DNA from: an uncultured delta proteobacterium
GTDB lineage: Bacteria; Desulfobacterota; Binatia; Binatales; Binataceae
Assembly (NCBI GenBank): GCA_963794325.1
Contig: CAWCDG010000003.1
Location: 320,001 to 384,000, forward strand
Reading direction: 5' to 3'
DNA: 64,000 nt
Under the pieces are notes generated by a model. The model had not been told where the DNA came from. It saw only the letters and a list, made by a program, of their open reading frames with translations, and did not search any database. The position numbers and the translations under genes were made by a program. Positions within the stretch are counted from its first letter, which is position 1. Every line of letters starts with the position of its first letter. This document shows, one piece after another, positions 24,535 to 48,035 of the stretch.

Positions 24535-24627
24535 GACGAGCTAACATACAGTAGAGGCCTTCGACAATCGACCATCCGGATGAGGAAGTTCACCTAATCG
24601 GCTGTTATATTCGTTCGAGCGCCGGAA

Positions 24628-24963
24628 ATGGATACCGACAACGATCTACTCTTCGTCTACGGCTCCCTGATGAATCCCGCGGAACGCGTGATCCTGCTGG
24701 GCCGCCCGATCGAGGCTAGCCCCGCACATCTTCCCGGATACGCGCGCGGCCGCAAGCGCTACTACTTCGTCGCCAAGCAAGTAGACGCCGTTACCGATGG
24801 CGCAATCCTCGAAGGCCTGACTGCCGACGATTTCGCAATTCTCGACGAATACGAAGAAGTGCCAACTCTCTACACCCGTGAACGAATTGAAGTCCTCTCC
24901 GCCGACGCCCGCAAAATCGAATGCTGGATTTACCTACCGACTAGTTGGGCGGCAGACCAGTAG
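24628..24963 (+). CDS. Gamma-glutamylcyclotransferase (AIG2-like)
   Basis: LFVYGSLM, LDEYEE, YTRERIEV. Confidence 0.88.
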   Translation: MDTDNDLLFVYGSLMNPAERVILLGRPIEASPAHLPGYARGRKRYYFVAKQVDAVTDGAILEGLTADDFAILDEYEEVPTLYTRERIEVLSADARKIECWIYLPTSWAADQ

Positions 24964-24990
24964 CAGGCTTTGTGGCCGGCCGCTGGCATT

Positions 24991-25065
24991 GGTGGCACAG
25001 GCTTCAGCCTGTGATTCTTTCCTGACACATGGACCAGAAAATCACAGGCTAAAGCCTGTGCCACC
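24991..25065. repeat. REP doublet (REPIN-like inverted pair)
   Basis: GGTGGCACAGGCTTCAGCCTGTGATT ... AATCACAGGCTAAAGCCTGTGCCACC: 26-bp inverted arms with 1 mismatch, each arm itself a GTGG-footed palindrome. Confidence 0.85.
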
Positions 25066-25071
25066 AAAATC

Positions 25072-25174
25072 AAACCCTTAGAGCAAAAGGGCGTCCTCGC
25101 CATTTTGCGATTAATACTGGGTGCAGGGGTCACCCCTGCCGCGGAAGCGTGAAACCCGCGCAGGGTTTCACATT
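25072..25174 (-). repeat. Tri-hairpin intergenic repeat, copy A
   Basis: GCAAAA-G-GGCG-TCCT-CGCC-A-TTTTGC; GCAGGGG-TCA-CCCCTGC; GTGAAACCC-N5-GGGTTTCAC. Near-identical to 34970-35070. Confidence 0.85.
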
Positions 25175-25193
25175 AGATTAGTGAATTGTTTCC

Positions 25194-26615
25194 CTACCCC
25201 TTATTATCCGGCGGAATCGCCTTCGGCTGCTCCCCACGCTTCAACCCGAACTTGTCGATCCTGTATTGCAGCGTCCGATAGCTCATCGCGAGCATCTTCG
25301 CCGCCTTCGCAATTACCCAGTCGTTGCGCTCCAGCGCTTGCAGAATCGCGTCGCGCTCGAAGGTTTCGAAATTGAACCCCTCGCTCGGTATCTCGTATTT
25401 CTCGCCGCGCTGACGATCGCCGCTGCGCATCGGCGTTTTGCGCGACAGGACCTCCGCCGGCAGATCGCGCGGCAGCACCTTGTCCCCTTCGCAGAGCAGG
25501 ATCGCGCGCTCGATCGCCGACTCGAGCTGGCGCACGTTGCCCGGCCACGAGTAGTCGAGGATCACTTCCATCGCCTCGCGCCCGATCTCTTTCACGCGTC
25601 CTTCCGCCAGATGCCCGAATTTCGCGAGCGCGTGATTCGCGAGTAGCGGAATATCGCCGCGCCGTTCGCGCAGCGGCGGCAGGGTTACGGTCACGACGTT
25701 GATTCGATAATACAAATCTTCGCGGAAGCGCCCCTCGCCGACTTCTTCCACGATATTGCGATTGCTCGCCGCCACCAGCCGCACGTCGATACGAAACGAA
25801 TCGTTGCCCCCGACGCGTCGCAACTCCTTCTCCTGCAGCACGCGCAGAATCTTCGCCTGCATCCCCTGCGGCAGGTCCGCAATCTCGTCGAGGAACAGCG
25901 TCGACTTGTCCGCGCTCTCGAACAACCCGATCTTGCGCTCGGTGGCGCCGGTGAATGCGCCCCGCTCATGTCCGAACAGCTCGTTCTCGATCAGGTTCTC
26001 GGGAATCGCCGAGCAGTTAATCGCGACGAACTGGCGTGACGCCCGCGGCGACAATCGATGGATCGCTTTGGCCACGATTTCCTTGCCGGTGCCGCTCTCG
26101 CCCTGGATAAGCACCGTCGAATTGGACGGCGCGACGCGCCGCACCAGCCGGATCACTTCCTGGATTGCGGGATCCTGCCCGATGATCCCTTCTATCTCGA
26201 AGGTTCCCTCGAGCCGCCGCTTCAGCAGTTGATTCTCCTGCTGCAGATTCGCGAACTCCGCCGCCTTGGCGACCCGCGTCACCAGCTTCTCGCGATCGGT
26301 CGGTTTTTCCAGGTAATCGAACGCGCCGGCCTTCATCGCCTGCACCACGCTGTCCGTCGATCCATGCGCCGTCAGCACCACCACCTGGCTGCCGGGATAT
26401 GCGCCGCGCACTTTCGCCAGTAGCTCCTCGCCCGACATCCCCGGCATCATCAGGTCCGTCAGCACGACGTCGAAGCGCGACAGCGCCAGCAATTCGATTG
26501 CGCGCTTGCCGACTGCCGCCTCTTCGACCGCGAAGCCTTCTTCGCGCAACGTGTCGGCGGTTATGTGTCGTTCGAGGTCGTTATCTTCAACGACCAGTAC
26601 TGAGGCCTGCGTCAT
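25194..26615 (-). CDS. Sigma54-dependent response regulator (NtrC family)
   Basis: REC domain (VVEDND...TDLMMP), GESGTGKE, GAFTGA, LFLDEI, WPGNVRQL, C-terminal Fis HTH. Confidence 0.95.
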   Translation of the reverse strand: MTQASVLVVEDNDLERHITADTLREEGFAVEEAAVGKRAIELLALSRFDVVLTDLMMPGMSGEELLAKVRGAYPGSQVVVLTAHGSTDSVVQAMKAGAFDYLEKPTDREKLVTRVAKAAEFANLQQENQLLKRRLEGTFEIEGIIGQDPAIQEVIRLVRRVAPSNSTVLIQGESGTGKEIVAKAIHRLSPRASRQFVAINCSAIPENLIENELFGHERGAFTGATERKIGLFESADKSTLFLDEIADLPQGMQAKILRVLQEKELRRVGGNDSFRIDVRLVAASNRNIVEEVGEGRFREDLYYRINVVTVTLPPLRERRGDIPLLANHALAKFGHLAEGRVKEIGREAMEVILDYSWPGNVRQLESAIERAILLCEGDKVLPRDLPAEVLSRKTPMRSGDRQRGEKYEIPSEGFNFETFERDAILQALERNDWVIAKAAKMLAMSYRTLQYRIDKFGLKRGEQPKAIPPDNKG

Positions 26616-28095
26616 GATGGTTGTGTCCGTCCATTACCGCGCTCGGCGGGAAGGTGAAAGTCAAAGTGGTCCCGTGTCCATCCCCGTTCGGTCCGATTTC
26701 TATTGTGCCTCCGTGCGCCTCCACGATCGCTTTCGACAAGAACAGCCCGAGGCCGATCCCGTCGCGTTTGGTGGTGAAGAATGGCTCGAACACATGATTG
26801 GCGACGCCCGCTTCGATTCCCGCGCCGGTGTCCGAAAAAGCAATCACCATCGAACCGTCGAGGCGGCTGAACGTGATCCGCATCGTACCGCCTTCGGGCA
26901 TTGCCTGTATTGCGTTGGCGACCACGTTGATAAAGCAGGTGCGCAGCTTCTCTGCGTCCACCTTGAGGATCGGCGTCTCGTTGCATTCCTCGACCAGCTC
27001 GATTCCCTGGCTCTTCATTTTCGATTCCGACAGCGCCACGACCTCATCCACCAGCTGGTGTACGTCGGTCGGCGTCGGAAATATTTCGATCGGCCTCCCA
27101 TAATGCAGGAAGCTCTGCACCAGGTCCGCCAGCCGCCGCATCTCATCCTTCATGATCGCGAGCTGATGCAAAAACGTTTCGCGATCGTTCGGCTGCTGCG
27201 GAGCGTAGCGCGTGCGGATCTGGTCGAGTGACAGGCTGATGAAGTTCAGCGGATTCTTGATCTCATGCGCCAGTCCGCCGGCCAATTGCCCCAGCGCCGT
27301 GAACCGCTCGAGCCGGTTCAGTTCCTGCTCGCGCTCGCGCGCGTGCCTGAGCTGCCCGACCATTTCGTTGAAGCTGCGGGTCAGCAGCCCGATCTCGTCG
27401 CGGCGATGCGCTTCCGGGACCGGCTCCAGTCCACGCGCCGCAAAATTTTGCGCCGCACTCGCGACCGCATGGATCGGCTTCACGTAGCGGTCCGCCAGGA
27501 TATACGCGAACACCAGCCCGATCGCAAAAATCGCAAACGCAAATAGCAGCTCACGCGTTCGGCTCTGCGCCAGGGGCTTCGCGAAGTCTCCGAAATTCGC
27601 CACCACCTGCACGTATCCGAGCAGATGGTCTTCGACTTCGACCGGGATCAGGTAAACCGTGGTCTCCGGCGCGAGTCCGATCTTGCCGGCCGGGATCGTC
27701 ACCAGTGAATCCGGATGCTTGAGTTGTTCGGGGGTTAGCCACTCCGCCTGCTTTGGCCGTAGCGCCGCGCCGATCAGTTGCGGATTCGAGCTGTTGAGGA
27801 TCAGATTCTCGCTCGACGCGATCGAGACTTCGAGGCCCTGGGTGTGCAGATTGTCGACATAGTGATGGAGCTGATCGCGATCGGTGTCGCGCACCGCGGT
27901 CAATTCCTGCACGCCGATCTGAATCACGCGCGCCAGGTCCTTGACCCGCTCCTGCGTGGTCGCGACGATTTCCGCCTGCGTCCCAAGGCTGACCCAAACC
28001 TCCGCGCCCAAGGTCAGCGTAAGCAGGCCGACCACCAGAACGATCAGCTTCGCCTTGAGGTTAAGCGCGGGAAAGTAGGTTTCCATTTTCGCCAT
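26587..28095 (-). CDS. HAMP-domain sensor histidine kinase
   Basis: 2 TMs, HAMP (DEIGLLTRSFNEM), H-box AHEIKNPL, N/G1/F/G2 boxes. Confidence 0.93.
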   Translation of the reverse strand: MAKMETYFPALNLKAKLIVLVVGLLTLTLGAEVWVSLGTQAEIVATTQERVKDLARVIQIGVQELTAVRDTDRDQLHHYVDNLHTQGLEVSIASSENLILNSSNPQLIGAALRPKQAEWLTPEQLKHPDSLVTIPAGKIGLAPETTVYLIPVEVEDHLLGYVQVVANFGDFAKPLAQSRTRELLFAFAIFAIGLVFAYILADRYVKPIHAVASAAQNFAARGLEPVPEAHRRDEIGLLTRSFNEMVGQLRHAREREQELNRLERFTALGQLAGGLAHEIKNPLNFISLSLDQIRTRYAPQQPNDRETFLHQLAIMKDEMRRLADLVQSFLHYGRPIEIFPTPTDVHQLVDEVVALSESKMKSQGIELVEECNETPILKVDAEKLRTCFINVVANAIQAMPEGGTMRITFSRLDGSMVIAFSDTGAGIEAGVANHVFEPFFTTKRDGIGLGLFLSKAIVEAHGGTIEIGPNGDGHGTTLTFTFPPSAVMDGHNHHDAGLSTGR

Positions 28096-28120
28096 CGGCG
28101 CGCCGGCCGCCGCGCATAGT

Positions 28121-28753
28121 TTATTCCGGCAATCCGCTCTTTTCAGCCGGAGCCGGCTCGCTGGTCTTACGTATTACCATCAACCGGGTTCCGTATATCG
28201 CAACGCTCAACACCGCGACGACCACTAATAGCCGCTCGAAGCCACCGATGTATCTGACCACCCACTCGAGCTGATGCCCGAACACATAGCCCAGCGTCAC
28301 GACGATCGGCACTGAGATCAACGCTCCCAGCAAATCGTAAAACAGGAACACCGCCGGCTTGACCCCGAAAGATCCGGCCGACAAATAAACCAGCGCGCGC
28401 AGACCGGCCAGGAATCGCGCGTAGAAGATCGCGCGATGCCCATGGCGCTGCATGAATGCCTCGATCCGCTCAATCTGATGCTTGCGGCCCGGCCGGCCGA
28501 GAGAAAAGTAGCGCACCAGTCCCGATCCAAAGTGCCGCCCCAGGAAAAACAGCGAGTTGTCGCCCGCCACCACGCCCAGCAGCGACACTGCCAGCGTGAT
28601 CGGATAGCGCGTGATCCCGCGATGTACCAGGTAGCCGCCCGCCAGCAGCGCAACGTCTTCGGGTATCGGCAATCCAAGTCCGCACAGCATCAGAACTACG
28701 AACAATCCGAGGTAGGTGAAGTGTTCGATGTACGCGGAGATCAGTCCGACCAA
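28121..28753 (-). CDS. DedA family membrane protein
   Basis: GLGLPIPED, AGDNSLFFLGR, ARFLAGLR. Confidence 0.9.
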   Translation of the reverse strand: MVGLISAYIEHFTYLGLFVVLMLCGLGLPIPEDVALLAGGYLVHRGITRYPITLAVSLLGVVAGDNSLFFLGRHFGSGLVRYFSLGRPGRKHQIERIEAFMQRHGHRAIFYARFLAGLRALVYLSAGSFGVKPAVFLFYDLLGALISVPIVVTLGYVFGHQLEWVVRYIGGFERLLVVVAVLSVAIYGTRLMVIRKTSEPAPAEKSGLPE

Positions 28754-28755
28754 GC

Positions 28756-29178
28756 TCAGCTCCCGTGCGCGTAGCGCGCGCGCAGTGCGTCGCGGATTTG
28801 TTCGACCGGCATGCCCCGGCTCGCCATCGCCTCGGCATCGCGAGCCTCACCGCAGCAAATCGCGCAGGTGCTCCCGTGAGTATCGCGAAAGCAATCGAGC
28901 AGGTTCTTGTGACCGTCCGTCACGTCGCATCCGCAGTAGCAATGCAACTGCGCCAGCAGCGCGGGATCTTTCTCCGCTACTTCGTAGGCCTCGCGCACCG
29001 TGCCCTGGAAATTCTGCGGGTCGAGCGTGATGCGCAAGTGCGCCCCCGGATCGCCGGCCGCCGCCAATTGCCCATCCGATGGATGCGAAGTGCTCGATGT
29101 GTAACTCGCATATGCGATCGCCACCACCAGCAATGCGGCGGCGGTAAGTGCGACAATTCCCTTGATACCCTTGAACAT
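28756..29178 (-). CDS. PCYCGC/CYCxC-motif exported protein
   Basis: N-terminal TM; LHCYCGC...HKNLLDCF...HGSTCAIC. Confidence 0.8.
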   Translation of the reverse strand: MFKGIKGIVALTAAALLVVAIAYASYTSSTSHPSDGQLAAAGDPGAHLRITLDPQNFQGTVREAYEVAEKDPALLAQLHCYCGCDVTDGHKNLLDCFRDTHGSTCAICCGEARDAEAMASRGMPVEQIRDALRARYAHGS

Positions 29179-29199
29179 GAGTCTCCCCGTGCCCCAAAA

Positions 29200-29871
29200 T
29201 TATAGCATCTCGATGAACCTTAGGCTTTGATTCGCGAAACTATATAGAGCGGCTGGCCGATGAGGCCCGCGGCGCGTATGCGGCAGCCGTTTCAGCATCG
29301 CCATCGCCAGAATACTGCGCCGAAAATTTCGCCGATCGAGCGGCCGCCCCAGGATCAGCGAGTACAGCTCCTCGAACTCGGCAAACGTGAATTCGCGCGG
29401 CAACAACGCATACGCGATATTGGTGTATTCCAGTTTCGACTTCAGCCGCTTCACCGCATACGCCGCCATCTGCGAATGGTCGTAGGCCAGCTGCGGCAAG
29501 CGCGTGACTTCGTACCAGCCGCCATTCGCATACTTGTCGCATGGCGCACTGACCGCGCCGGCCTCCGGAATCAGCGCCATGTAGGCGACCGACACCACGT
29601 GCGCTCGAGGATCGCGCGACGGATCTCCAAACGTGAACAGCTGCTCGAGATAAGCCCCGCGCAGTCCCGTCGATTCGTGCAGCTCGCGTCTCGCCGCATC
29701 GTCCAACAGCTCGCCCACTCGCACCAAACCGCCCGGAAATGCCCACTTCCCGCGCGCCGGCCCGCGTCGCAGCTCGACCAGGTAGGTCTGCAATCGCCCG
29801 TCGTTGATCGCGAACAGCACCGTATCGACCGCGACCATCGGCCGCGCCGGCTTTTCCCCGCCCTCGACCAC
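29200..29871 (-). CDS. nrtR: NrtR-family Nudix/winged-helix regulator of NAD metabolism
   Basis: VAVD, WAFPGG...AARRELHESTG Nudix box, EQLFTFGDPSRDPR, DRRNFRR, RPAALY; adjacent to nadA. Start uncertain (GTG 29871 or ATG 29838). Confidence 0.85.
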   Translation of the reverse strand: MVEGGEKPARPMVAVDTVLFAINDGRLQTYLVELRRGPARGKWAFPGGLVRVGELLDDAARRELHESTGLRGAYLEQLFTFGDPSRDPRAHVVSVAYMALIPEAGAVSAPCDKYANGGWYEVTRLPQLAYDHSQMAAYAVKRLKSKLEYTNIAYALLPREFTFAEFEELYSLILGRPLDRRNFRRSILAMAMLKRLPHTRRGPHRPAALYSFANQSLRFIEML

Positions 29872-29888
29872 GCTCTGTGAGTTCGCGC

Positions 29889-30899
29889 TCAGACGCTGAG
29901 CTCGAGCATCCGCTCCAGTGCGCGCTTCGCTCCCTCGCGCACCTCCTCGGTCAGCTCGATTTCGTAGCGCAGGTGGCGAAGCGAATCGAGCGTGCCCTCG
30001 AGCGTGATCATCTTCATGAACCGGCATAACTTGCACGCCTTGTAAAAATGCTTGTCGGGAATTTCCATCAGAAGACGGTCGGACAGCCCGCATTCGGTGA
30101 CAACCAGGAATTTATCCGCGTCGCTGCTCTTGGCATACGCGACCATCGCGCTCGTTGACAGCACCGCGTCCGCCAATGCCAACACGTCGCGGCGACACTC
30201 CGGATGCGCAATCACCTTGATTCCGGGAATCGCGCGCTTGACCTTGTTCACCTCGTCGGGGGTTATCTGATGGTGCACGTAGCAGTTGCCGTCCCACGAA
30301 ATCACCCGCTTCTTGGTCTGCCCTTGCACGTAGTTCGCAAGATTCTGATCCGGCACGAACAGAATATTGTCGGAGTCGATCCGCTCGACGATCTTCGCCG
30401 CATTCGCCGACGTGCAGCACGCATCCGACAGGGCCTTCACGTCCGCCGTGCAATTCACGTACGATACCACCTTCAGGTCGGGATAAATCTTCAGCAACTC
30501 TTCCTTGCGATCCGCGAGCGCCTCCGCGGTAACACTGTCGGCCAGCGAGCATCCCGCCTTGAGATCGGGCAGCAACACCTTGCGGCCGGGATTGAACACC
30601 TTCGCCGTCTCCGCCATGAAATGCACGCCGCAAAATACAATCACGTCGGCGTCGCGCACGTCGCGCGCATTGCGCGCCAGTTCCAGCGAATCGCCGATAA
30701 AGTCCGCGACCTCGAAAATCTCCGGCCGCTGATAGTTATGCGCGAGAATCACCGCCCGCCGCTCCTTCTTCAGCCCCCGGATCTCCGCAATCATCTCCGC
30801 ATAACGGCGGTACGTCTCATCCGTGTAACTATCGTTCCCGAGCACCGCGAACTTCTCACGCAGCGCCCCGGCATCAATCGCATTCTGTGCAGCTTCCAT
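29889..30899 (-). CDS. nadA: Quinolinate synthase
   Basis: ILAHNYQ, GDSLELA, FCGVHFMAE, AGCSLAD, YVNC, PDQNL, AHPEC. Confidence 0.95.
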   Translation of the reverse strand: MEAAQNAIDAGALREKFAVLGNDSYTDETYRRYAEMIAEIRGLKKERRAVILAHNYQRPEIFEVADFIGDSLELARNARDVRDADVIVFCGVHFMAETAKVFNPGRKVLLPDLKAGCSLADSVTAEALADRKEELLKIYPDLKVVSYVNCTADVKALSDACCTSANAAKIVERIDSDNILFVPDQNLANYVQGQTKKRVISWDGNCYVHHQITPDEVNKVKRAIPGIKVIAHPECRRDVLALADAVLSTSAMVAYAKSSDADKFLVVTECGLSDRLLMEIPDKHFYKACKLCRFMKMITLEGTLDSLRHLRYEIELTEEVREGAKRALERMLELSV

Positions 30900-30925
30900 A
30901 ACGATCAATCCTCGTGACCCAATAC

Positions 30926-30946
30926 TTTGCGTCAATCTGACACTTA
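30926..30946. promoter_or_regulatory. Putative NrtR operator upstream of nadA
   Basis: 21-bp imperfect palindrome TTTGCGTCAATCTGACACTTA with a GT-N7-AC core, 27 bp upstream of the nadA ATG. Confidence 0.7.
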
Positions 30947-31063
30947 CTCGATCCAGTGATCCGACGCAACCCTCTGTTTCTTCCCCTTTCACCAGGTTCG
31001 AAGCCGGCCTGCGGGCAGTTTGACCATATCGGTTCGCCCACAGTACCTTTCGACGAGATCCCT

Positions 31064-32689
31064 GTGCAGACTGAAGGCGCAAGCCGCTCCGTTTCGAGGA
31101 AGATCACTCGCCGTACTCTCATCGGGGCAGCGGCAGGAGCGTGTGCGTACGCCGCGCTATCGCCGCTGGTGGCGACGGCCGGGCGGCTCTCCTTCGTCGC
31201 TCATCTTCCGACCACCGATGCAGCTGGAATTAGCTGGCCGCCGAATCAAGCGTTGCCATCGTTTGCTTCGCCTGTTCAGCTTGACGCCGCCGACATCGCG
31301 TCCCTCACAAGCGACCAACAACTGCTGCTGACCACTCTGCAGGGAATCGTCAATCGCACCCAGCCGCGGATCTACCTGTTTCAGAGCGGCGACGGCACCG
31401 ACCAGACCTGGCTGCAGACCACTAACGTTTCAAACACCGCGATTGCCGATCCGCTCAGCCTGATCGACAAATACGGTGGCGAGACGGCCGGTGCCGTCAT
31501 CTACGATCCCATCCTTCCCGATACTGCCAACGTTGCCACCAGCCTGGCCGGTGTGATGGGCGGCGTGATTGCGACTGCGGATCTGGCGAGCCAGTACAGT
31601 CTGCCCATCCTTGCCGATTTGCGCGGTCAATTCGCGACCAAGCTGGACGCCTACAACTGGCTTATCGACAATTATTGGACCCAGCTCACGCCGCGCCTGC
31701 TGACCGCCATCAGTCCTACAACTCCCAACCTGCGCGATTACATCGTCGCGACGAAATCGCTGGTATTCTGGCTCGATCCGGAAATCCCCGATGAAGCTGC
31801 CCTGTTTACGCAGATACTGCAGAAGGTCGCGCCAAATACGCCTTACATGGGATGGTTCGTGAGAGGACATGAGTCCTCCGGTGTAACGCTATGCTCGCAA
31901 AACGGGGTGGTCGTCGGCGCTGCCGACTTCCTCGATAATGCCACGGTGCTCGGTGGTGTGCCCGCACCAATCAGTCAATCGCAGCCGCAGATCACGACGC
32001 CCAAGCTCGAGAATAAAATCTACCTCACCTTCACTTTCAGCGACGGCGACAATCTGCAGTACGATCAGCATCGGCTCCGAACCATCTGGGACGATCCGAA
32101 TCGCGGCAAGGTGCCGCTCAACTGGACTATCAGCCCACTTCTGATCGATGCTGCGCCGATCATGCTCCACTACTACCAAAGCACACAGACACCAAACGAT
32201 CTTATCGTCGCTGGGCCGTCGGGGGCAGGGTACACCTATCCCGGCGACTGGCCTTCCGCCGCTCTCGCAACCTTCACCAAGCGGACTGGCCAGTACATGA
32301 CGCGCGCCGGACTGAAAGTGATCGACGCTCTGAACCTCACTGCGACGGGCTCGAACTCCAATTTGACGAAAACGGTTGCGCGAGAGTATGCGCGTTACGC
32401 GCACCCTCTCGGGCTACTCTGTAACTGGCGGTTTGATTCCAGTTCCCTGCAAAGACCGGCGGGCCTTCCGGTGATAAGTCAGGCCATCATCAGCTCGGTC
32501 GCGGAAGGACGGATTGCCACTGCATCGATAAGAGACTCGTGGACCAGCCATCACCCGCTCTTCGCAGCCATCCTCGTGGACGCGTGGAACATGACCCCGA
32601 CCGACGTCAATACGCTGGCAGCATCGCTAGGAAAGCCGTTCGAAATCGTTCGCGGCGACGTCTTCTTCGACCTGATACGCAAGCATTAG
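31064..32689 (+). CDS. GxGYxYP-family putative glycoside hydrolase, Tat-exported
   Basis: TRRTLI twin-Arg signal; TLQGIVNR, SDGDNLQY, GPSGAGYTYP. Start uncertain. Confidence 0.85.
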   Translation: MQTEGASRSVSRKITRRTLIGAAAGACAYAALSPLVATAGRLSFVAHLPTTDAAGISWPPNQALPSFASPVQLDAADIASLTSDQQLLLTTLQGIVNRTQPRIYLFQSGDGTDQTWLQTTNVSNTAIADPLSLIDKYGGETAGAVIYDPILPDTANVATSLAGVMGGVIATADLASQYSLPILADLRGQFATKLDAYNWLIDNYWTQLTPRLLTAISPTTPNLRDYIVATKSLVFWLDPEIPDEAALFTQILQKVAPNTPYMGWFVRGHESSGVTLCSQNGVVVGAADFLDNATVLGGVPAPISQSQPQITTPKLENKIYLTFTFSDGDNLQYDQHRLRTIWDDPNRGKVPLNWTISPLLIDAAPIMLHYYQSTQTPNDLIVAGPSGAGYTYPGDWPSAALATFTKRTGQYMTRAGLKVIDALNLTATGSNSNLTKTVAREYARYAHPLGLLCNWRFDSSSLQRPAGLPVISQAIISSVAEGRIATASIRDSWTSHHPLFAAILVDAWNMTPTDVNTLAASLGKPFEIVRGDVFFDLIRKH

Positions 32690-39142: not shown

Positions 39143-39144
39143 AC

Positions 39145-39218: not shown

Positions 39219-39243
39219 CCCGCCGCGCAGGCGATTACCTTCC

Positions 39244-39969: not shown

Positions 39970-39997
39970 GACGATCCTTCCCTTTAACCCGTACCCT

Positions 39998-40576: not shown

Positions 40577-40703
40577 CCGCGGCGGCGTCTTGTTGTATTC
40601 CAAAAACGCCGACTTCGCCGGAAAGAGCTGAGCGCCGGGACGTTCGCGACGCAGTCCGTTCACGCTCGAGATTGACGACACCTGATGCATACCCATCAAG
40701 CCA

Positions 40704-40729
40704 ATAGCTCGACTTGAGCTATGAGTCAA
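40704..40729 (-). promoter_or_regulatory. Inverted-repeat operator next to a -35 hexamer upstream of the padR-ABC operon
   Basis: ATAGCTC-GACTT-GAGCTAT (40704-40722) just downstream of TTGACT on the minus strand (40729-40724). Confidence 0.55.
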
Positions 40730-40744
40730 CGAGCGTGGAAGAGA

Positions 40745-41275
40745 TCACGATGCAGCAATCCAGCTGCGCATGCTACGAAAGACGCGCCCGAGATTGCTCG
40801 AACCCGAAAGCGGCGCGGTTCGCGCACCCGCCGCAACCAGCTCGCGCATCCGCGCCGGTTCCGGCTCCGTGCCGAACACCACATCCCAGATAGGCGTGGT
40901 CACGCCGAAAATCGCGTCCGGCTCGCGCAAATGATGCGCCAGATGCCGCGCGCGCAGCCGCTCCTCAACCGCGCACGACGGCGTCGCGAAATGAATCCGG
41001 TAGTGCACGTACTCATACACACCGAATCCCGCGACGATACCGAACAAAAAGATCATCCCCGGCGCCGTCCCGAAGATGGCGGCCAATACGATCAACACGA
41101 CAGCGCTGGGAATCCACGCCCGTATCGCAAACACCGCGCGTGGGTCGACATGATGCTCATTATGCAGCGGCGTCACAAACGTCCGATGCGAATGCCCAAG
41201 CACCCCGTGAATGATGTATTCAAGGAGCGTCCACGCAAACACTCCCCCGACAAAAATCAGCGCACCAGCAATCAC
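40745..41275 (-). CDS. Fatty acid hydroxylase / sterol desaturase superfamily protein
   Basis: His boxes EYIIHGVLGH, HNEHH, YEYVHYRIH, HLAHH; FGVTTPIWDVVFGT. Confidence 0.88.
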   Translation of the reverse strand: MIAGALIFVGGVFAWTLLEYIIHGVLGHSHRTFVTPLHNEHHVDPRAVFAIRAWIPSAVVLIVLAAIFGTAPGMIFLFGIVAGFGVYEYVHYRIHFATPSCAVEERLRARHLAHHLREPDAIFGVTTPIWDVVFGTEPEPARMRELVAAGARTAPLSGSSNLGRVFRSMRSWIAAS

Positions 41276-41378
41276 CGCATGATCTTAGAACGCCTCCACC
41301 CCCTTATCAACGCAGTCCCCCGATTGCATGCATCGCGAAGTCGATGGCGGGCACGGCGGCCCGCCCCCACTGGAGTTC

Positions 41379-41407
41379 TTGACACCCTATTCAAGGATTG
41401 GAATACT
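41379..41407 (+). promoter_or_regulatory. Sigma70-like promoter with overlapping palindrome upstream of the carotenoid oxygenase
   Basis: TTGACA (41379-84), 17-nt spacer, AATACT; TATTC-N8-GAATA at 41388-41405. Confidence 0.5.
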
Positions 41408-41445
41408 CTAATTCCCCAGCACGAAAAGGAAGTCGAGGTGACGAC

Positions 41446-42813
41446 ATGCACGACTCAGCCAATCCCTACCTGACCGGCAACTACGCTCCGTGGCGCGAGG
41501 AAACTGACGCGTTCGACCTCGAGATCGACGGCGAGCTGCCGCGCGAGCTCAACGGCGCCCTTTATCGCATCGGCCCCAACCCGCACTTCAAGCCGCCCGG
41601 CCGCTACCATTGGTTCGACGGCGACGGGATGGTCCATGCGTTCATCCTGCGCGACGGCCGCGCCGCCTATCGCAATCGCTACGTCCGCACTGACGGCCTC
41701 AAGGCTGAGATGAAAGCGGGGCGCGCGCTGTTCGGGGGATTGCTCGAGCAGCCGCGCGAGATGACCCCCGATCTGCCGCCATTCAAGAACGCTGCGAACA
41801 CCAATATCATCGGCTACGCCAACCGCTTGCTCGCGCTGTTCGAAGCCGCGTCGCCGCACGAGCTCCAACCGTTGACGCTCGAAACCATCGGCCTGTTCGA
41901 TTTCGGCGGCAAGTTGACCGGTCCCGTCACGGCGCATCCGAAGTTCGATCCCGTCACCGGCGACTTGCTGTTCTTTGCCTACCAACCGTTTCCGCCGTAC
42001 GCGACTTGGTACCGCGCGAGTCGCGACGGCAAGCTCCTCGAGTCGCGCCCAATCGATACCGGACTGCCCGTGATGATGCATGATTTTATCGCGACCGATA
42101 ACTATGCGATCTTTTTCGTGTGCCCGTCCGTGTTCCATCTCGAGAACGCGGCGGCGGGGAAGCCGCTCTTCAATTGGGAGCCGCAGCATGGAACCAAAAT
42201 CGGCGTGATGAACCGTAAGACCGGCGACGTGAAATGGTTTCAGGACGAAGCGTTCTTCATCTTTCATTTCCTGAACGCGTACGAAGAGCACGGGTCGCTG
42301 GTCGTCGATGGATGCAGAATGGAGTCGCTCGACATGAGCGGCAATTCATTTGGCGGCAAGCCTGCGATGCCGTGGCGATGGAATCTGAATCTTAAAGAGG
42401 GCTCGATGCGCCAGCGGCAAATCGATGACCTACCCTCCGAATTTCCGCGCTTCGACGAGCGCATCGCCGGCCGCAAGCATCGCTACGGCTACTTCGCCGG
42501 CGGCAATCCGGTATCTCCGCAACATGAGACGAGTTTCAAGGCGCTGCTCAAGCGCGACTACCAGACTGACAAACTCGAAGCTCACGACCTCGGCAAGAAC
42601 TTCGCTCCCGGAGAGCCGGTCTTCGTGCCACGCTCCGCGAAGTCGTCCGAGGACGATGGATGGGTGCTCGCGGTCTGGTATGACGAGGCGCTCAACCGCA
42701 GCGAGATGGTGGTGCTCAACGCGCAGAATTTCGCGGGCGCGCCCGTCGCGAGGATCAAATTGCAGCATCGCGTGCCGTGGGGCTTCCACGGCAACTGGGT
42801 GCCCGCGCAATGA
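41446..42813 (+). CDS. Carotenoid oxygenase / lignostilbene dioxygenase family protein
   Basis: NPYLTGNYAP, HWFDGDGMVH, TAHPK, MMHDF, FHFLNAYE, EFPR, GEPVFVP, GFHGNW (four Fe-binding His). Confidence 0.93.
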   Translation: MHDSANPYLTGNYAPWREETDAFDLEIDGELPRELNGALYRIGPNPHFKPPGRYHWFDGDGMVHAFILRDGRAAYRNRYVRTDGLKAEMKAGRALFGGLLEQPREMTPDLPPFKNAANTNIIGYANRLLALFEAASPHELQPLTLETIGLFDFGGKLTGPVTAHPKFDPVTGDLLFFAYQPFPPYATWYRASRDGKLLESRPIDTGLPVMMHDFIATDNYAIFFVCPSVFHLENAAAGKPLFNWEPQHGTKIGVMNRKTGDVKWFQDEAFFIFHFLNAYEEHGSLVVDGCRMESLDMSGNSFGGKPAMPWRWNLNLKEGSMRQRQIDDLPSEFPRFDERIAGRKHRYGYFAGGNPVSPQHETSFKALLKRDYQTDKLEAHDLGKNFAPGEPVFVPRSAKSSEDDGWVLAVWYDEALNRSEMVVLNAQNFAGAPVARIKLQHRVPWGFHGNWVPAQ

Positions 42814-43481
42814 AGAAGGCGACACGCTCCGCGCGCGCAATCGGCGACCTGCGTGTTCCCACCAGGAAAGCGTCGCTTGATCTCGCGCTGCTCGGATTGA
42901 TCGCGGAAGTGCCCGGCGTGTCCGGCTACGACATCATGAAGATCTTCGATCTGTCGATGGCGCATTACTGGCATGCGCATCCGACACAGATCTATCCGAC
43001 CCTGGAGCGCATGGAGTCGCTCGGGCTGATCAAGAGCCGCAACGTCGTGCAGCGCAATCGCCCGAACAAGCGCCTGTACACGATCAGGCCCTCGGGCGAG
43101 AGATTGTTGATCGAATGGCTCGAAAGCGGGTTCGAGGGAATCAACCTGAAGCATCCGCCGTTGCTGCGATGCCGGTTCCTCGGAAATCTCGGACCCGACC
43201 GCGCGATCGCAGCGCTCGAGGAGGAGCGCGAGGCGTGGGCGCGGCATCTGAAGGTTTATCGGCAACTCGAGCAGGGCTATTTCGCGGGCGGGAAAAGCTA
43301 TCGCGACGTGAACGCGATGTTCTCGTGGTTCACGCTCAAGCGCGGGATCGATTGGATGGAGGAAAATATCGGATGGTGCGAGTGGGCGATCGCCGAGATC
43401 GAGCGGAATCGCGCACTGTTCCCAGCCGAGAATATGCGCACCCAGATGAAGCCGCCGATACGAGCAAAACAATCCGCTTGA
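42810..43481 (+). CDS. PadR family transcriptional regulator
   Basis: SGYDIMK...QIYPTLERM...PNKRLYTI; ATG overlaps the oxygenase stop. Confidence 0.88.
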   Translation: MKKATRSARAIGDLRVPTRKASLDLALLGLIAEVPGVSGYDIMKIFDLSMAHYWHAHPTQIYPTLERMESLGLIKSRNVVQRNRPNKRLYTIRPSGERLLIEWLESGFEGINLKHPPLLRCRFLGNLGPDRAIAALEEEREAWARHLKVYRQLEQGYFAGGKSYRDVNAMFSWFTLKRGIDWMEENIGWCEWAIAEIERNRALFPAENMRTQMKPPIRAKQSA

Positions 43482-43485
43482 TTTC

Positions 43486-43548
43486 AATGTGAAACCTTCC
43501 CGGTTTCACGCTTCCTGGGCAGGGCTAAGCCCTGCACCTTAGTATTAA
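43486..43548 (+). repeat. Tri-hairpin repeat, copy D (inverted, two hairpins)
   Basis: AATGTGAAACC-TTCCC-GGTTTCACGCTTCC-N-GGCAGGGC-TAA-GCCCTGCACC-N-AGTATTAA; reverse-complement relative of copy A. Confidence 0.8.
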
Positions 43549-43618
43549 GAAAGATGCGGGCCCGAGCGAGTGCCGTAACCTTTTCGGGGCATTGCGGTTT
43601 CTGTAGATAGAGGCTGAT

Positions 43619-44275
43619 GTGTCCGCTCGATCTGTATCCTTATATTCGCGCTCTGCTGCGAGCGAGAACCGTCGCGCGGGCGTTGCGGAGCGTGGGTTGA
43701 AGGCGCGGGGCGCATCCATCATCGATGCTGGTTACGCGGCGGAGCGGGCGCTGATCGAGGCTGCGCAGCGGGATCGGGGGCGGTTCGGTGAGTTGTACGA
43801 GACTCACTTTGAGCGCGTGTATGCCTATGTTGTGCGGCGGGTGCGGGATCGAGATGAAGCGCAGGATATTACTGCCGATGTTTTTCATCTGGCGCTGAAA
43901 AGTTTGCCGCGCTTTGAGTGGCGCGGGGTGCCTTTTGCGGCGTGGCTCTTCAGAATTGCTTTCAACGAAATTGCCGATCGATCGAAGAGCACCGCCAAGC
44001 TTCGGGCTCATCAACGCGAGGCTGTAGTCGATGCAGTGGACGACAGTGGCGGTGTCGCGACTGGATATGAGGAGGCGGAGCGGCGTGGGCGGTTGTTCAA
44101 GCTCGTCGAGCGGCTGCCGCGCGATCAATCGCGGGTGATTACGATGCGGTTTGCGGAGGATAAATCGATTCGCGAAATCGCGGCTGCGCTCGGACGCTCC
44201 GAGGGCAGCGTCAAGCAGCTTCAATTCCGCGCCATGCAGAATTTGCGGGTGCGGTTGGGTGATTCGAATGGCTAA
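43619..44275 (+). CDS. ECF RNA polymerase sigma factor
   Basis: FGELYETH, DEAQDITADVF, FAAWLFRIA (region 2); SIREIAAALGRSEGSVKQLQFRA (region 4). Start uncertain. Confidence 0.9.
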   Translation: MSARSVSLYSRSAASENRRAGVAERGLKARGASIIDAGYAAERALIEAAQRDRGRFGELYETHFERVYAYVVRRVRDRDEAQDITADVFHLALKSLPRFEWRGVPFAAWLFRIAFNEIADRSKSTAKLRAHQREAVVDAVDDSGGVATGYEEAERRGRLFKLVERLPRDQSRVITMRFAEDKSIREIAAALGRSEGSVKQLQFRAMQNLRVRLGDSNG

Positions 44276-45791
44276 GGGGAAACTGATCGAACAACTGGAC
44301 CATGCGGTGGAGGCGATCATGGCGAAGCCAGATGCGCCGCTCCCCACGTCGGATTCGCGGCTGGCGGCGATTCTGCGGATCGCGGGCGAGTTGCGGGATT
44401 TGCCGCGCGCCGATTTCAGGAATCGTCTGAAGGCTGATTTGGCAGCGCAATCGAAGGAGCTTGAATCTTCGCCGGCCGGTGGCAAGCCGCTGTTCACGCA
44501 TGCGGATATCGAAGAGCGCCTCAAGCAGTTGGCCGAACAGCCGAAATTTATCGTGCATGACGTGCGCGCGGCGCTGAGCGATTTGCCCGACATGTCGATG
44601 CGCTTCCTCGATTCGATGAATGCGCATCTTCTGGTAGCGTCGCGCGGCGATAAGCGCACGCATTGGGAGCGCCATCTCGGGTCCGACGAGATGATTTACG
44701 TGATGGATGGAGAGACCGATATTGTCACCTTGACCGACGGCGGGCCGGTCGAGTCGACGATTCACGCTGGCTCGTTGTTTGTTTGTCCCGAAGGAATGTG
44801 GCATCGCCTGACGCCGCGGCCGTTCGTGTCGGCGTTTTACCTGACGCCGAGCAACACCGAAGGCTCGGCCGCGGCAGACCCGCGGCCAAAGGGCGAGCGC
44901 GTCGCGAAGCGGCCAGTGCGCAGGGCAACCCTCGCGAAGCTCAAGGAGCACGATCTGCGCGCGGCACTGCGCTCGGTCCCGCATCTCAATATTACGGCGG
45001 ACACGACCGGCGAGGATGCTGACGCTGCCGTGCGCAGCATCGCGAAGATCGGGAATCTGACGCTCGGCGTAATGAGCTATACGGGTCTGACGCCCTGGGA
45101 GCGGCATCCCGATGGCGACGAGTTGCTGCTGGTGCTCGACGGCGAGCTCGCGGTGACGGCGCTTACCGACGACGGCCCGGTGAAGCGGAAGCTTCGCGCC
45201 GGCGAGGCCTTCGTGTGCCCGCAAGGATTGTGGCATCGGCAGTTCGCGGAGAAATCGGTGTCGATGCTGTACGGAACGCCGATCGAGCACGGTGCGGTTT
45301 CGTTCGCGGACGATCCGCGCGTCGAGAAAAAAGAAGCCAGCGCGCAGGGGCCGGGAGTTTCACGGAGCATCATGCCGTTCCTGAATATAGAGGGCGTTGC
45401 CAGCGCCGTGGATTTTTACAAGCGCGTGTTTGGCGCGACCGTGCTGATGCGCGACGAGGAGCCCAGCGGAATCGTGAGCCATGCGATGCTCAAGATGGGC
45501 GACACGACCGTGATGCTTTCCGACCCGACCTCGGCCGACGTACAACAGAACGACGTGAACCATCTCACGCGCTCGCCACGTTCGTACGGCGGCTCGCCGG
45601 TCCAGATGTACATCTACGTGGCGGACGTCGACCAAGTCGTGAAGCGCGCGATCGCCAACGGCGCCAGGGCGATCGACCAGGTCGAGAACCGCGACTGGGG
45701 CGACAGGTGTGGTGGGATCGAGGATCCCTACGGCCACATCTGGTTCGTAGGAACGCCGCTGAAGGATCTGCCTCCGAAGAAACTAAAATAG
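44268..45791 (+). CDS. Fusion protein: helical N-domain + two cupin domains + VOC/glyoxalase domain
   Basis: WERHLGSDEM...PEGMWH and WERHPDGDEL...PQGLWH cupins; MPFL...AVDFYKRVFGA...WGDR...DPYGHIW VOC; overlaps the sigma stop. Confidence 0.85.
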   Translation: MAKGKLIEQLDHAVEAIMAKPDAPLPTSDSRLAAILRIAGELRDLPRADFRNRLKADLAAQSKELESSPAGGKPLFTHADIEERLKQLAEQPKFIVHDVRAALSDLPDMSMRFLDSMNAHLLVASRGDKRTHWERHLGSDEMIYVMDGETDIVTLTDGGPVESTIHAGSLFVCPEGMWHRLTPRPFVSAFYLTPSNTEGSAAADPRPKGERVAKRPVRRATLAKLKEHDLRAALRSVPHLNITADTTGEDADAAVRSIAKIGNLTLGVMSYTGLTPWERHPDGDELLLVLDGELAVTALTDDGPVKRKLRAGEAFVCPQGLWHRQFAEKSVSMLYGTPIEHGAVSFADDPRVEKKEASAQGPGVSRSIMPFLNIEGVASAVDFYKRVFGATVLMRDEEPSGIVSHAMLKMGDTTVMLSDPTSADVQQNDVNHLTRSPRSYGGSPVQMYIYVADVDQVVKRAIANGARAIDQVENRDWGDRCGGIEDPYGHIWFVGTPLKDLPPKKLK

Positions 45792-45808
45792 CAACGCGGA
45801 GAAAAATC

Positions 45809-46306
45809 ATGGCTCGCAAAGTGAAGACAGTTCCCGACGGTTGGCATAGCGTGACTCCGTTCCTGTGCGTTCAGGACGCAGGGCGAGCGATCGAGTTCTA
45901 TCGCAATGTGTTCGGCGCGACAGAATTGCAACGCATGGCGGAGCCGGACGGGAAAGTCACGCATGCGGTACTGAAGATTGGCGATTCGATCGTGCGGCTC
46001 TCCGACGACAGCTCGAAGCACGCGGCGGAGTGGGTGGCGAAGGGCTGGTCGCGTAGTCCGCAATCGCTGGGCGGCACGCCAGTGCATTTTTATGTTTACG
46101 TCGAGGACTCGGACGCCGTGTTCAAACGCGCGGTCGCCGCGGGCGCGAAAGCGATGGAACCGGTGACGGACAAGGAGTGGGGCGACAGGCTTGGCTCGCT
46201 GACAGATCCGTTCGGACATATCTGGATAGTGGCGACTCACAAAAGAGATGTGCCAACAGAGGAAGTCTCGAAGCGGCGCGCAGGAGTCAGTCGCGCGGCA
46301 AACTGA
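45809..46306 (+). CDS. VOC family (PhnB/glyoxalase-like) protein
   Basis: HSVTPFL...AIEFYRNVFGA...HAVLKIGD...WGDR...DPFGHIW. Confidence 0.9.
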   Translation: MARKVKTVPDGWHSVTPFLCVQDAGRAIEFYRNVFGATELQRMAEPDGKVTHAVLKIGDSIVRLSDDSSKHAAEWVAKGWSRSPQSLGGTPVHFYVYVEDSDAVFKRAVAAGAKAMEPVTDKEWGDRLGSLTDPFGHIWIVATHKRDVPTEEVSKRRAGVSRAAN

Positions 46307-46308
46307 AG

Positions 46309-47877
46309 ATGAAAATTTCACGCATCATTTCGATCGTGGCGGCGCTGCTGTTCCTCCTCGCGGTTGCGCGGTTGACGCGGTTGGAAAATGCCGGGCCGCC
46401 GCATGTGTTCGTGATGCTGCCCGGGCAGGAGCCGGCAACGATGTATCTGCCGGGGCCGGGAGATCCGTTCTATACGCTGTTTCCCAAACCAGTTTCGCAG
46501 CGGCCGCCGGCTGTCGTGCTGATTCACGGCTTCACGGGCGATCGCGTGCTGATGAGCGGGCTCGCACGACGACTGGCGGAGAATGGTTACGCAGTGCTGG
46601 CGATCGACGTAAACGGGCACGGCGAGAATCGAAATCCGTTCAATGGCGGCACGGCTGAGAGCGACAGTCTGCGCGCGAACGTGAAGACCGCGGTCGATTA
46701 TCTGCGCGACAACAACCTCGTCGACGGATCGCGAATCGTCGTGATGGGGCATTCGATGGGCGCGGGAGCAGCGCTCGACTACGCGAACAACGATCCCAGT
46801 ATCAAGGGCGCGGTGATGATTTCGGGCGGCTGGGCGCTCGGTCCAAATCGTCCGAGGGACGCTCTGTTCATTTTTGCCGAGCGCGATCCGAAGGAGCCGA
46901 TCCAAGACCCGTCCACGGCGATCGCGTCTCATCTGGCGGCAGTGCCGCAGATCGAACTCGGCAAGACCTACGGCGACTTCGCGCAAGGTAACGCGGTCGA
47001 GGCATTCCGGGTGCCGGGCGTCGATCACGTGACGATCGTCAATTCCCCGGTAGCCGCGACCACGATCGTGAAATGGCTCGACAGCACGTTCGGAACCACG
47101 AGAGCCGGCGCGATCAAAGTCAAAGACGCGCGGCGTGGATCGGCGAGATTCGCGCTGTTGATGTTTGTGATCCTGCTGATTCCGCTGGGACGGGTTTGCG
47201 GCTCGATGGCGCCAAGTTGGGCCGAGGAGCGGCCGGGACCGAGCGGATGGATGGGCCTGCTGATACTCGCCGGTGCGCTGATTGCGGCGATGCCGCTGAC
47301 GGCGGCGAATCCGGCGTCGTTCGTGCCGATCGTAGTCGGCAGTATCCAGATCTCATGGTTCATGGTCGCCGGATTGATCGTGTTAGGGGTAATCGCGCTG
47401 TCGCACCCGCTGGAGTGGTACCGAATCCGCGAAGGAGCGGGCGGCGCGATGATCGCCGGGGCGGCGGGCTTCGCGGTGGTGTACGTATGCCAGGTCGCGA
47501 TGTCCGTGATGTTGCATCACCTGTCGCTCTCGCCCGAGCGGCTGATGGTGATGGCGATGGCGACGGTCCTCATGTTCCCGTTCTGGATGGGGTTTGAGTT
47601 GCTGGTGCGGCGCGGCGGGCTGACGATTTCGACGGTGTGCGCGTCGCTCGGCCGTATCCTGATCCTGGTTTTGATGGCGGTGGGCGTGAGCCTGAACGTG
47701 TTGCCGTTCGTGTTGATGTTGATCCTGCCGATACTGGCGATTGCGTTCGTAATGATCGAAATATTCGCGGCGTCTGCGTACAGCGCGTCGCGCAATCTGG
47801 TGGCGATCGCGGTTTTTGAAACGCTATGGTTCGCCTGGATGATCGCAGCGGTGAGCCCGATCACATTTATGTTCTAG
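46309..47877 (+). CDS. Alpha/beta hydrolase with C-terminal multi-TM membrane domain
   Basis: IHGFTG, GHSMGAG nucleophile motif, VDH; about 8 hydrophobic helices at the C-terminus. Confidence 0.82.
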   Translation: MKISRIISIVAALLFLLAVARLTRLENAGPPHVFVMLPGQEPATMYLPGPGDPFYTLFPKPVSQRPPAVVLIHGFTGDRVLMSGLARRLAENGYAVLAIDVNGHGENRNPFNGGTAESDSLRANVKTAVDYLRDNNLVDGSRIVVMGHSMGAGAALDYANNDPSIKGAVMISGGWALGPNRPRDALFIFAERDPKEPIQDPSTAIASHLAAVPQIELGKTYGDFAQGNAVEAFRVPGVDHVTIVNSPVAATTIVKWLDSTFGTTRAGAIKVKDARRGSARFALLMFVILLIPLGRVCGSMAPSWAEERPGPSGWMGLLILAGALIAAMPLTAANPASFVPIVVGSIQISWFMVAGLIVLGVIALSHPLEWYRIREGAGGAMIAGAAGFAVVYVCQVAMSVMLHHLSLSPERLMVMAMATVLMFPFWMGFELLVRRGGLTISTVCASLGRILILVLMAVGVSLNVLPFVLMLILPILAIAFVMIEIFAASAYSASRNLVAIAVFETLWFAWMIAAVSPITFMF

Positions 47878-47890
47878 GACTCCCCATATT

Positions 47891-47929
47891 CCGGTTCCCC
47901 TTCCCTCGAGGGAGGTTAGGGGTTAGGGT
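47891..47929 (+). repeat. REP-like CCCTTCCC..GGGA..GTTAGGGGTTAGGG module
   Basis: Degenerate copy of the 33992-34033 element. Confidence 0.7.
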
Positions 47930-48035
47930 GCCCGCTCATTCTCAGTGCACGAACGTGCTAAACTAATCGAAACAGATCGCTCGGTCTGCTTCATCTCTAA
48001 TTCAAACCGTCGCACGCGACGAAAGGAAAACAATC

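Follow-up and report, generated by a model that had tools for sequence, protein, structure and literature searches.

Short Conserved Blocks of Strand-Asymmetric Silent-Site Composition in an Uncultured Soil Bacterium, with Repeats Oriented along Them

The GC skew that replication leaves in bacterial chromosomes changes sign at oriC and at the terminus, and bacterial strand skew is usually read as a two-arm record from one origin. Here, we analyze a 64,000-nucleotide stretch of DNA, called the window throughout (G000:C3:320,001-384,000, that is, contig C3 of the 4.45-Mb, 10-contig assembly G000), from a soil bacterium whose phylum, to our knowledge, has no cultured member; its close relatives in public records (Candidatus Binatus, Binataceae) are all soil metagenome-assembled genomes. 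The window contains a block in which GC skew at silent sites flips from negative to positive inside an intact RPE65-family gene, and on whose two arms a small hairpin repeat, R1, lies in opposite orientations. The genus has several conserved blocks of strand-asymmetric silent-site composition that are anchored to their loci, and this is one of them. Its polarity is origin-like, in that on each side the strand running 5' to 3' away from the center is enriched in G over C, and the bias, which does not depend on transcription, is mutational and regional. Over the chromosome of this genome as a whole the record is faint, and the strong signal resides in a few short blocks.

Such blocks share with replication GC skew a strand asymmetry at silent sites, an independence of gene direction, and a negative-to-positive flip, one of the flips lying at the origin genes. 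Unlike replication GC skew, strong skew here is limited to 6 to 20 kb per arm, the replichore skew is weak, and there are several flips; that in the window has its counterpart, in a closed sister genome, at a distance of 185 kb from dif, has a left arm opposed to the main fork, and is not accompanied by A/T skew.

Three other systems bear comparison. Elements that use single-stranded DNA (ssDNA), such as IS200/IS605 and REP/RAYT, have their orientation set by the replication fork, and this has been scored against the sign of local GC skew (PMC3971601, PMC6006769). Like the elements treated in those accounts, small hairpin elements in this genome are oriented by local GC skew and two Y1 genes are accompanied by inverted hairpins; unlike them, the coupled families (R1 and R2) do not lie beside the RAYT genes, the coupling goes by the local block, and the window copies are old, with orthologs across species. 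In mammals, upward skew jumps and N-shaped domains are read as sites of bidirectional fork departure (PMC2764438, PMC3320577). Many abrupt upward jumps without matching abrupt downward ones occur here as well, but the mammalian domains, as described there, are of megabase size with many origins, whereas ours span tens of kilobases in a genome with one dnaA and one dif and have flat rather than ramped arms. Run-off replication from a phage-derived origin in Bartonella and Salmonella provides a second site of bidirectional synthesis that amplifies host genes (PMC3610622, PMC2697382). Another block of our genome, near 95 kb of the same contig, is likewise centered on a prophage remnant; unlike the run-off systems of those reports, the window block has no phage gene, the remnant at 95 kb is skew-neutral, and composition alone, not amplification, is read here. 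A change in skew as an accompaniment of Bartonella run-off replication is not borne out, the word "skew" being absent from the main text of both reports. Searches of open-access papers and preprints brought up no title or abstract on local skew blocks, in bacteria or in Binatota, to which the orientation of repeats is tied. What is unfamiliar is the combination of short, conserved, origin-polar blocks away from origin and terminus, a faint chromosome skew, and repeats that follow the blocks; the single pieces are familiar.

The block, its polarity, and its conservation

Four-fold degenerate sites were taken from genes called genome-wide by a simple codon-model caller (3,807 genes), and GC4 skew denotes the plus-strand GC skew at these sites. 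Segmentation of the sites under the Bayesian information criterion resolves a left flank (10.0-24.2 kb; GC4 skew, -0.11), a left arm (24,453-41,837; -0.32) where silent sites are rich in C on the plus strand and in G on the minus strand, a right arm (42,068-47,852; +0.25) with a G-rich plus strand, and a right flank (48.3-63.5 kb; -0.01). The whole block comprises about 23 kb, its right outer edge falling at 47,852-48,328. A preliminary description of this DNA, based on hand counts of third codon positions, had one strand depleted of C from about 24 kb and the other from about 43 kb, and segmentation gives nearly those coordinates. All five hand counts reproduce exactly: 32 C, 20 G, 7 T, and 1 A in typA; 11 C, 22 G, 22 T, and 5 A in the ECF sigma factor gene; 3 C, 21 G, 14 T, and 1 A in 39 codons of a permease gene; 12 A and 2 T in 60 codons of the acyl-CoA dehydrogenase gene; and 11 A in the last 40 codons of the GGACT gene, where six of six Glu codons are GAA. 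The effect was also said to be strongest beside repeats, which is not confirmed: the signal is block-like and not peaked at the copies. Segmentation yields flat blocks with fairly sharp outer edges, and the gradient within the left arm is mild (-0.39 in the near half versus -0.26 in the far half; P = 0.014).

In 2-kb windows over the whole sequence, GC skew stays at about 0 for the first 24 kb, reaches -0.19 at 36-38 kb, changes sign between 41-43 kb (-0.07) and 42-44 kb (+0.08), holds at about +0.1 until 50-52 kb, and is +0.01 at 52-54 kb. Genome-wide, the mean over 4-kb windows is 0.004 with a standard deviation of 0.049 (n = 4,415), against which the signal of the block far exceeds chance; of 38 segments of at least 7 kb with skew beyond +/-0.09, one lies in the window. 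The flip from negative to positive is placed at 41,970 (2-lnL interval, 41,688-42,711; segmentation cuts, 41,837 and 42,068), inside an intact RPE65-family gene (41,398-42,813, plus strand) with a full-length Pfam match, and is the second largest among 3,762 gene boundaries genome-wide. The flip zone contains no repeat copy and no iterons, no AT-rich stretch is present across 40-45 kb, and no Rfam families were found in the window. GC content across 24-53 kb is 0.57 to 0.62, the same as in the flanks.

The direction of genes has no part in the asymmetry. Left-arm genes on the minus strand (25-41 kb) have GC4 skews of -0.22 to -0.52, and those on the plus strand share this polarity (GGACT, -0.49; acyl-CoA dehydrogenase, -0.42; RPE65, an intermediate -0.13); right-arm genes range from +0.10 to +0.40. 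Across the genome, plus-strand GC4 skew is correlated between neighboring genes on opposite strands (r = 0.42, n = 1,010) almost as closely as on the same strand (r = 0.54, n = 2,148), gene strand is unrelated to neighborhood skew (r = 0.006, n = 3,807), and the type of gene boundary (divergent, convergent, or tandem) has no relation to skew steps. The original claim of a strand-specific skew that disregards gene direction thus stands, and ordinary codon bias at the 5' ends of genes is rejected as its explanation, the bias spanning whole genes.

In strong domains, with polarity taken from eight neighboring genes and composition from the left-out gene, cross-validated skew is +0.230 where the gene is coded on the G-rich strand and +0.204 where it is coded on the C-rich one. 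The four-fold AT skew of these domains is +0.017 and their G+C share is unchanged (0.80 versus 0.78), so that the asymmetry is purely one of G against C, with no A/T partner. The A/T component of the hand-picked stretches is therefore not general, and the deamination-like footprint that had been read into them is, in its simple form, not supported. A slight shift in the direction taken by the four-fold sites is also seen at codon positions 1 and 2, as expected from mutational pressure. The correlation length of the skew is 10 to 25 kb.

Most abrupt flips are of one kind. Among nonoverlapping four-fold jumps of at least 0.35 (6 kb per side), 13 run from negative to positive and 2 in the reverse direction (two-sided binomial P of about 0.007, by hand calculation), and in the whole sequence, upward flips outnumber downward ones by 5 to 0 at a change of >0.15 and by 14 to 6 at >0.12. 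The largest nonoverlapping steps are all upward: +0.67 (C3:95.9 kb), +0.62 (the window), and +0.51 (between gidA and yidC). A negative-then-positive block is expected to contribute one double-size upward step and two single-size downward steps, and the outer edges of the window block and of the C3:95-kb block are both among the largest downward steps. Because a random patchwork or inversions would yield both kinds of flip equally, the count of 13 to 2 argues against them. Apart from known repeat families, no sequence motif is shared by eight flip centers.

The flip between gidA and yidC lies at C4:1,046.9-1,048.5 kb, flanked by mnmE-gidA-gidB-parA-parB and yidD-yidC-jag and adjoined by four parS sites; dnaA is at C4:1,080,787. 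The weak replichore-scale skew (GC4, about +/-0.05) changes sign at this gap too, which to judge by its genes is most likely oriC. A dif core pattern has one match in the genome, at C8:68,844. This single-copy site has two 11-base arms and a 6-base spacer, with 22 of 22 specified bases identical in all five congeners, and beside it, at C8:65,504, is one of the largest positive-to-negative skew steps.

Neither the chromosomal origin, raised as a possibility in the preliminary description, nor the terminus explains the block, the oriC candidate being on C4 and dif on C8. The 58 ORFs (open reading frames) whose Pfam scan fixed the gene map of 24-56 kb include no dnaA/dnaN, gidA, parAB, or rnpA-yidC, and the window has none of the 12 parS matches found genome-wide. 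At the block there is no persistent change in replichore skew, values returning to about 0 within 18 kb on one side and 6 kb on the other, and the polarity is the reverse of that of a terminus. In the closed sister genome G007, dnaA lies at 0.86 Mb, an R1 orientation flip near 0.89 Mb (40 of 137 candidates scored), dif at 3.290 Mb, and the ortholog of the window at 3.105 Mb, 185 kb from dif. Forks on the replichore that holds the block predict a G-rich plus strand throughout, which the left arm opposes.

Five congeners were compared with this genome (5,668 aligned four-fold sites in six genomes; pairwise four-fold divergence, 25 to 38%). The block, its flip at RPE65, and three plus-strand and one minus-strand R1 copies are at orthologous places in all five congeners, whose gene order is colinear over 4-62 kb, and in all six genomes GC4 skew is negative in the left arm (-0.28 to -0.45) and positive in the right (+0.07 to +0.25). 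At two further loci, orthologs were judged on whole-sequence skew profiles: the C3:95-kb block has a conserved counterpart at 2.710 Mb of G007, and the repeat-free flip at C4:877 kb is faint in two congeners. The sole long left-arm gene without skew, a GxGYxYP gene (31,064-32,689, plus strand; GC4 skew, +0.02), is absent from the syntenic region of all five congeners and is a recent insertion that has not yet acquired the local bias. The prophage remnant at the center of the C3:95-kb block is neutral as well (+0.05), and the two cases together argue that the bias is acquired in place over time.

That remnant (C3:91,684-100,227; loci L036/L037) consists of an S24/CI-like repressor, small ORFs, a Mu-type portal, and, by eye, a terminase-like ORF, and sits exactly at the center of its block. 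The corresponding flip in G007 is 3.3 kb from the neighboring carboxyl-transferase gene, close enough that the remnant is probably shorter there or absent.

Substitutions were polarized by singleton parsimony, each genome against the other five, a procedure of low power. In the left arm, G>C singletons exceed C>G singletons per site (0.278 versus 0.162; P = 2.9e-5) and C>T and G>A are equal (0.123 versus 0.137); in the right arm, C>T exceeds G>A 1.57-fold (P = 0.013). Control regions also have G>C above C>G, and of these results only the left-arm asymmetry is used, with caution. With that caution, the process is probably still acting, at least in the left arm.

Repeat families and the direction of cause

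R1 is an element of about 100 nt with three hairpins (DNA fold, z = -6.2) and is present at 196 loci in the genome. R2, at 302 loci, is a CCCCTTCCC-loop-GGGAAGGGG hairpin with a TTAGGGGTTAGG tail. Four R1 copies lie in the window, three in plus orientation in the left arm: copy A (25,074-25,180), which has an orthologous copy in the five congeners; copy B (34,970-35,080), also with orthologs in congeners; and copy C (39,147-39,220), which has no third hairpin. The inverted copy D (43,482-43,540, minus) retains hairpins 2 and 3 and directly follows the stop codon of a PadR gene. R2 copies, all plus, are found at 33,986-34,049; at 37,475-37,576, where the copy proper (37,512-37,576) is preceded by a partial inverted arm (37,475-37,508); at 38,951-39,014, beside R1 copy C; and at 47,883-47,930, at the right edge of the block. 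The left edge is marked by an R3 doublet, a REPIN-like long hairpin (24,990-25,072; fold z = -10.2).

Throughout the genome, repeats are oriented by the skew around them. R1 is oriented in accord with the sign of local GC4 skew at 74% of its 196 loci (P = 1.2e-11), and agreement is 71 to 78% in each of four configurations of flanking genes. There is a dose-response: the share of plus copies declines as skew rises, being 100% below -0.2 (n = 11) and 10% above +0.2 (n = 10). R2 agrees at 65% of its 302 loci, and its plus share falls from 81% to 0% across skew classes. When intergenic 14-mer cores are collected de novo (15 exact), R1, R2, and several others are coupled and the palindromic ones are not. 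The coupling is local and not replichore-wide, copies numbering 21 plus and 26 minus to the left of the origin on C4 and 16 plus and 30 minus to its right, and at the other two large flips R1 is plus on the negative arm and minus on the positive arm, as in the window. The association between skew polarity and repeat orientation, first noted from the four window copies, is thereby extended to the genome.

The preliminary description went further and suggested that the repeats may be the source of the skew. A nuclease or helicase loader, for example of the HUH/RAYT type, would act on R1/R2 hairpins, one adjacent strand would be displaced or resynthesized, and polarity would be that of the copy. 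We consider this unlikely, although the coupling with its dose-response is what it predicts. The oriented average profile is asymmetric, extending from about -15 kb to +6 kb, and is so for 33 isolated copies as well, but oriented exponential kernels of R1 and R2 yield an R-squared of 0.18 (ceiling, about 0.78; shuffled mean, 0.026, and maximum, 0.036). The strongest flips have more repeat islands near them (2.0 versus about 0.6 within 2 kb), yet 9 of the 20 largest flips have none within 2 kb. Both edges of the window block coincide with repeats (the cluster of R3 and R1 copy A on the left, an R2 copy on the right), whereas the flip, at 41.7-42.7 kb, lies in a repeat-free gene, copy C being 2.8 kb and copy D 1.5 kb away; past copy C, the innermost plus copy, GC4 skew persists at -0.3 to -0.5 for 2.3 kb, and neither copy B nor copy C coincides with a step. 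In two genomes of other families the gidA region has neither R1/R2 nor a flip, as a causal role would have it, and in a more distant congener that region has a weaker flip with the same R1 arrangement; against this, no family marks an unoriented center, mean steps being at most +0.06. The genome does have two RAYT genes, each flanked by REPs of its own, but these families, R3 and R4, show no coupling.

R1 and R2 are probably reporters of the asymmetry and not its cause, because the flip occurs in an intact, repeat-free gene and the repeats explain 18% of the variance. That unrelated families share the coupling is also more economical if the families respond to the asymmetry.

The search for HUH/RAYT nucleases suggested at the outset thus recovered candidate genes, though beside other families than those that are coupled. 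The two Y1 (RAYT-like) genes are at C4:286,760-287,293, flanked by R3, and at C4:486,370-486,816, flanked by R4, and neither is flanked by R1 or R2 copies. Their loci (C4:286,424-287,306 and C4:486,309-486,880) encode 177 and 148 aa and are bracketed by their own inverted hairpins in the classical REPtron layout. The combination of a Y1 HUH gene with its own inverted hairpins is thus present for R3 and R4. An R4 hairpin lies upstream of RPE65 (41,346-41,367). It is an insertion in this genome only, absent from all four aligned congeners, and is therefore not the conserved center; a copy restricted to one genome shows recent mobility of the R4 family.

Hairpin 3 of R1 contains the two parS half-sites in everted order. 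Away from the origin, parS-like palindromes with a GTTTCACGTGAAAC core occur at C2:207,557, C3:424,929, and C4:1,742,836, 1,742,971, and 1,893,281. They have a repeated context of about 45 nt, several are within 100 to 200 nt of an R1 copy, and one is at a large one-sided skew step (C4:1,893 kb).

Processes that could write the blocks

The reading that we put forward, tentatively, is that of an origin-like process, anchored to the locus, in which DNA is synthesized outward or a strand is exposed and of which the repeats are reporters; to judge from composition, synthesis or unwinding outward from the center is our best guess as to what that process might be. Recurrent DNA synthesis or unwinding would start near the center and run outward for 5 to 20 kb in both directions, as at a secondary zone of local initiation or over-replication, and the displaced strand or lagging-strand template would be exposed more than its partner. 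The G-rich strand of each arm, with its 5' end toward the center, would correspond to the lagging-strand template of an outward fork or to the strand displaced by outward synthesis. The same process would govern the insertion or retention of R1 and R2, as is known for elements that transpose through ssDNA, and by analogy with these R1 and R2 may themselves move through ssDNA. Since one process would both mark a strand and govern the repeats, the repeats would be its reporters rather than its source. In support, the sole block whose role can be named sits at the origin genes and has the same architecture as that in the window. If local synthesis or strand exposure does write the blocks, this would be replication or repair behavior undescribed for bacteria.

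A stronger form, in which several fixed, conserved sites besides oriC start bidirectional synthesis of 5 to 20 kb, write the skew blocks, and steer repeat orientation, is in our estimation doubtful; if true, it would be a bacterial counterpart of multi-origin skew domains. If it is instead the repeats that write the blocks, they would be REP-like elements with a mutagenic, strand-polar activity. Either way, skew-based prediction of origins and tests of mobile-element orientation would mislead in such genomes unless made locally.

Several observations weigh against outward synthesis from the center. The flip is in a coding gene and has no origin hardware, that is, no AT-rich unwinding element, iterons, or initiator gene. 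Six DnaA-box-like 9-mers (at most one mismatch to TTATCCACA; five on the plus strand) do form the densest such cluster in the genome at 38,319-39,544, but this cluster is 2 to 3 kb from the flip and mostly within coding sequence (the MacB and ABC-ATPase genes and their spacer), and although three congeners have two or three boxes at orthologous places, two congeners that keep the skew have none; it may be a lead, and we treat it as no more than that. At the other flip centers, as in the gidA|yidC gap, there is no DnaA box, so that the oriC call at that gap relies on gene context. Flat arms with sharp outer edges are unlike forks that simply run out. G<->C singleton rates in the right arm are symmetric (0.189 versus 0.204). 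With divergence per lineage this low, a skew inherited as a relic could remain visible in each of the six genomes, and the strong conserved blocks are repeat-rich, the repeat-free flip at C4:877 kb being the faint one, as expected if repeats were the source.

The block could be such a relic, with no present process behind it: an old event inherited from the ancestor of the genus and now fading, for example, the partial inversion of a skewed segment or the integration of a once-autonomous replicon. This would fit the block-like arms with their sharp edges and similar magnitudes (-0.32 and +0.25), and repeat orientation would have turned along with an inverted segment, but inversions should give equal numbers of both kinds of flip, not the 13 and 2 observed. 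Moreover, the flip is inside an intact, full-length, conserved gene, and the congeners are colinear over 4-62 kb. A replicon is disfavored by ordinary GC content and by the lack of integrase, replication, and partition Pfam families at 24-53 kb, where tRNA borders were not scanned. Four-fold divergence of 25 to 38% would leave an ancestral skew visible in all six genomes. The substitutions divide: symmetric G<->C rates in the right arm and a net C>G flux in the left (130 versus 81 events) suit a fading relic, whereas left-arm rates per site favor the existing skew (0.278 versus 0.162). The opposition of the left arm to the main-fork prediction in closed G007 is also in accord with a relic, while the same architecture at the origin gene cluster is not. 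On balance we find a relic improbable. What probability remains belongs to something we have not thought of.

Ordinary causes (the chromosomal origin or terminus near 42 kb, or a bias of gene orientation, transcription, or codon usage) would suit the origin-like polarity and the preponderance of minus-strand genes in the left arm and plus-strand genes in the right, but they count as already refuted and are vanishingly improbable, given that dnaA, gidA, parAB, yidC, and four parS sites are on C4 and the dif-like site on C8, that the G007 ortholog at 3.105 Mb is distant from origin genes at about 0.86-0.89 Mb and distinct from dif at 3.290 Mb, that the skew stops after 18 kb and 6 kb, that plus-strand genes of the left arm share its polarity while gene strand predicts nothing and boundary type is unrelated to jumps, and that the bias covers entire genes rather than 5' ends.

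Three more specific candidates do not fit. Resection from a break of the RecBCD/Chi type predicts, by reasoning, an abrupt onset with a decay in the opposite sense, hence abrupt downward jumps, or exposure of the other strand, and the flips are mostly upward. An inversion breakpoint is contradicted by the same gene order in five congeners and by a flip interval inside an intact gene; an inversion older than the genus may nevertheless have given rise to the flip. An integrated replicon, prophage, or island is contradicted by the ordinary GC content, the lack of such Pfam genes, and the presence of the colinear region in all five congeners.

Neighboring genes and further features

By Pfam, the left arm opens with the GGACT gene (plus), followed by genes for a sigma-54 response regulator, a histidine kinase, a DedA/VTT protein, a PCYCGC protein, NrtR, and NadA (all minus), the GxGYxYP and acyl-CoA dehydrogenase genes (plus), and genes for a hydrolase, HlyD, two MacB permeases, an ABC ATPase, PadR, and a fatty-acid hydroxylase (all minus). 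From RPE65 onward, the genes (PadR, ECF sigma factor, cupin/glyoxalase, hydrolase, Bcp, HtrA, and others) are on the plus strand.

The conserved noncoding sequence upstream of RPE65 is an ordinary promoter-like stretch (41,380-41,410; TTGACA...GGAATACT), which lies between two PadR-type genes and is kept in all five aligned genomes. Within the right arm, the ORFs at 44,151-45,791 and 45,215-46,306 overlap in different frames and each ends in a glyoxalase domain, reflecting either an uncertain start of the second or a frameshift. Outside the block, and absent from the syntenic region of all five congeners, an ORF of 947 aa at 1,012-3,855 of the window contains about seven repeats of roughly 200 to 216 nt and is presumably of the beta-propeller type.

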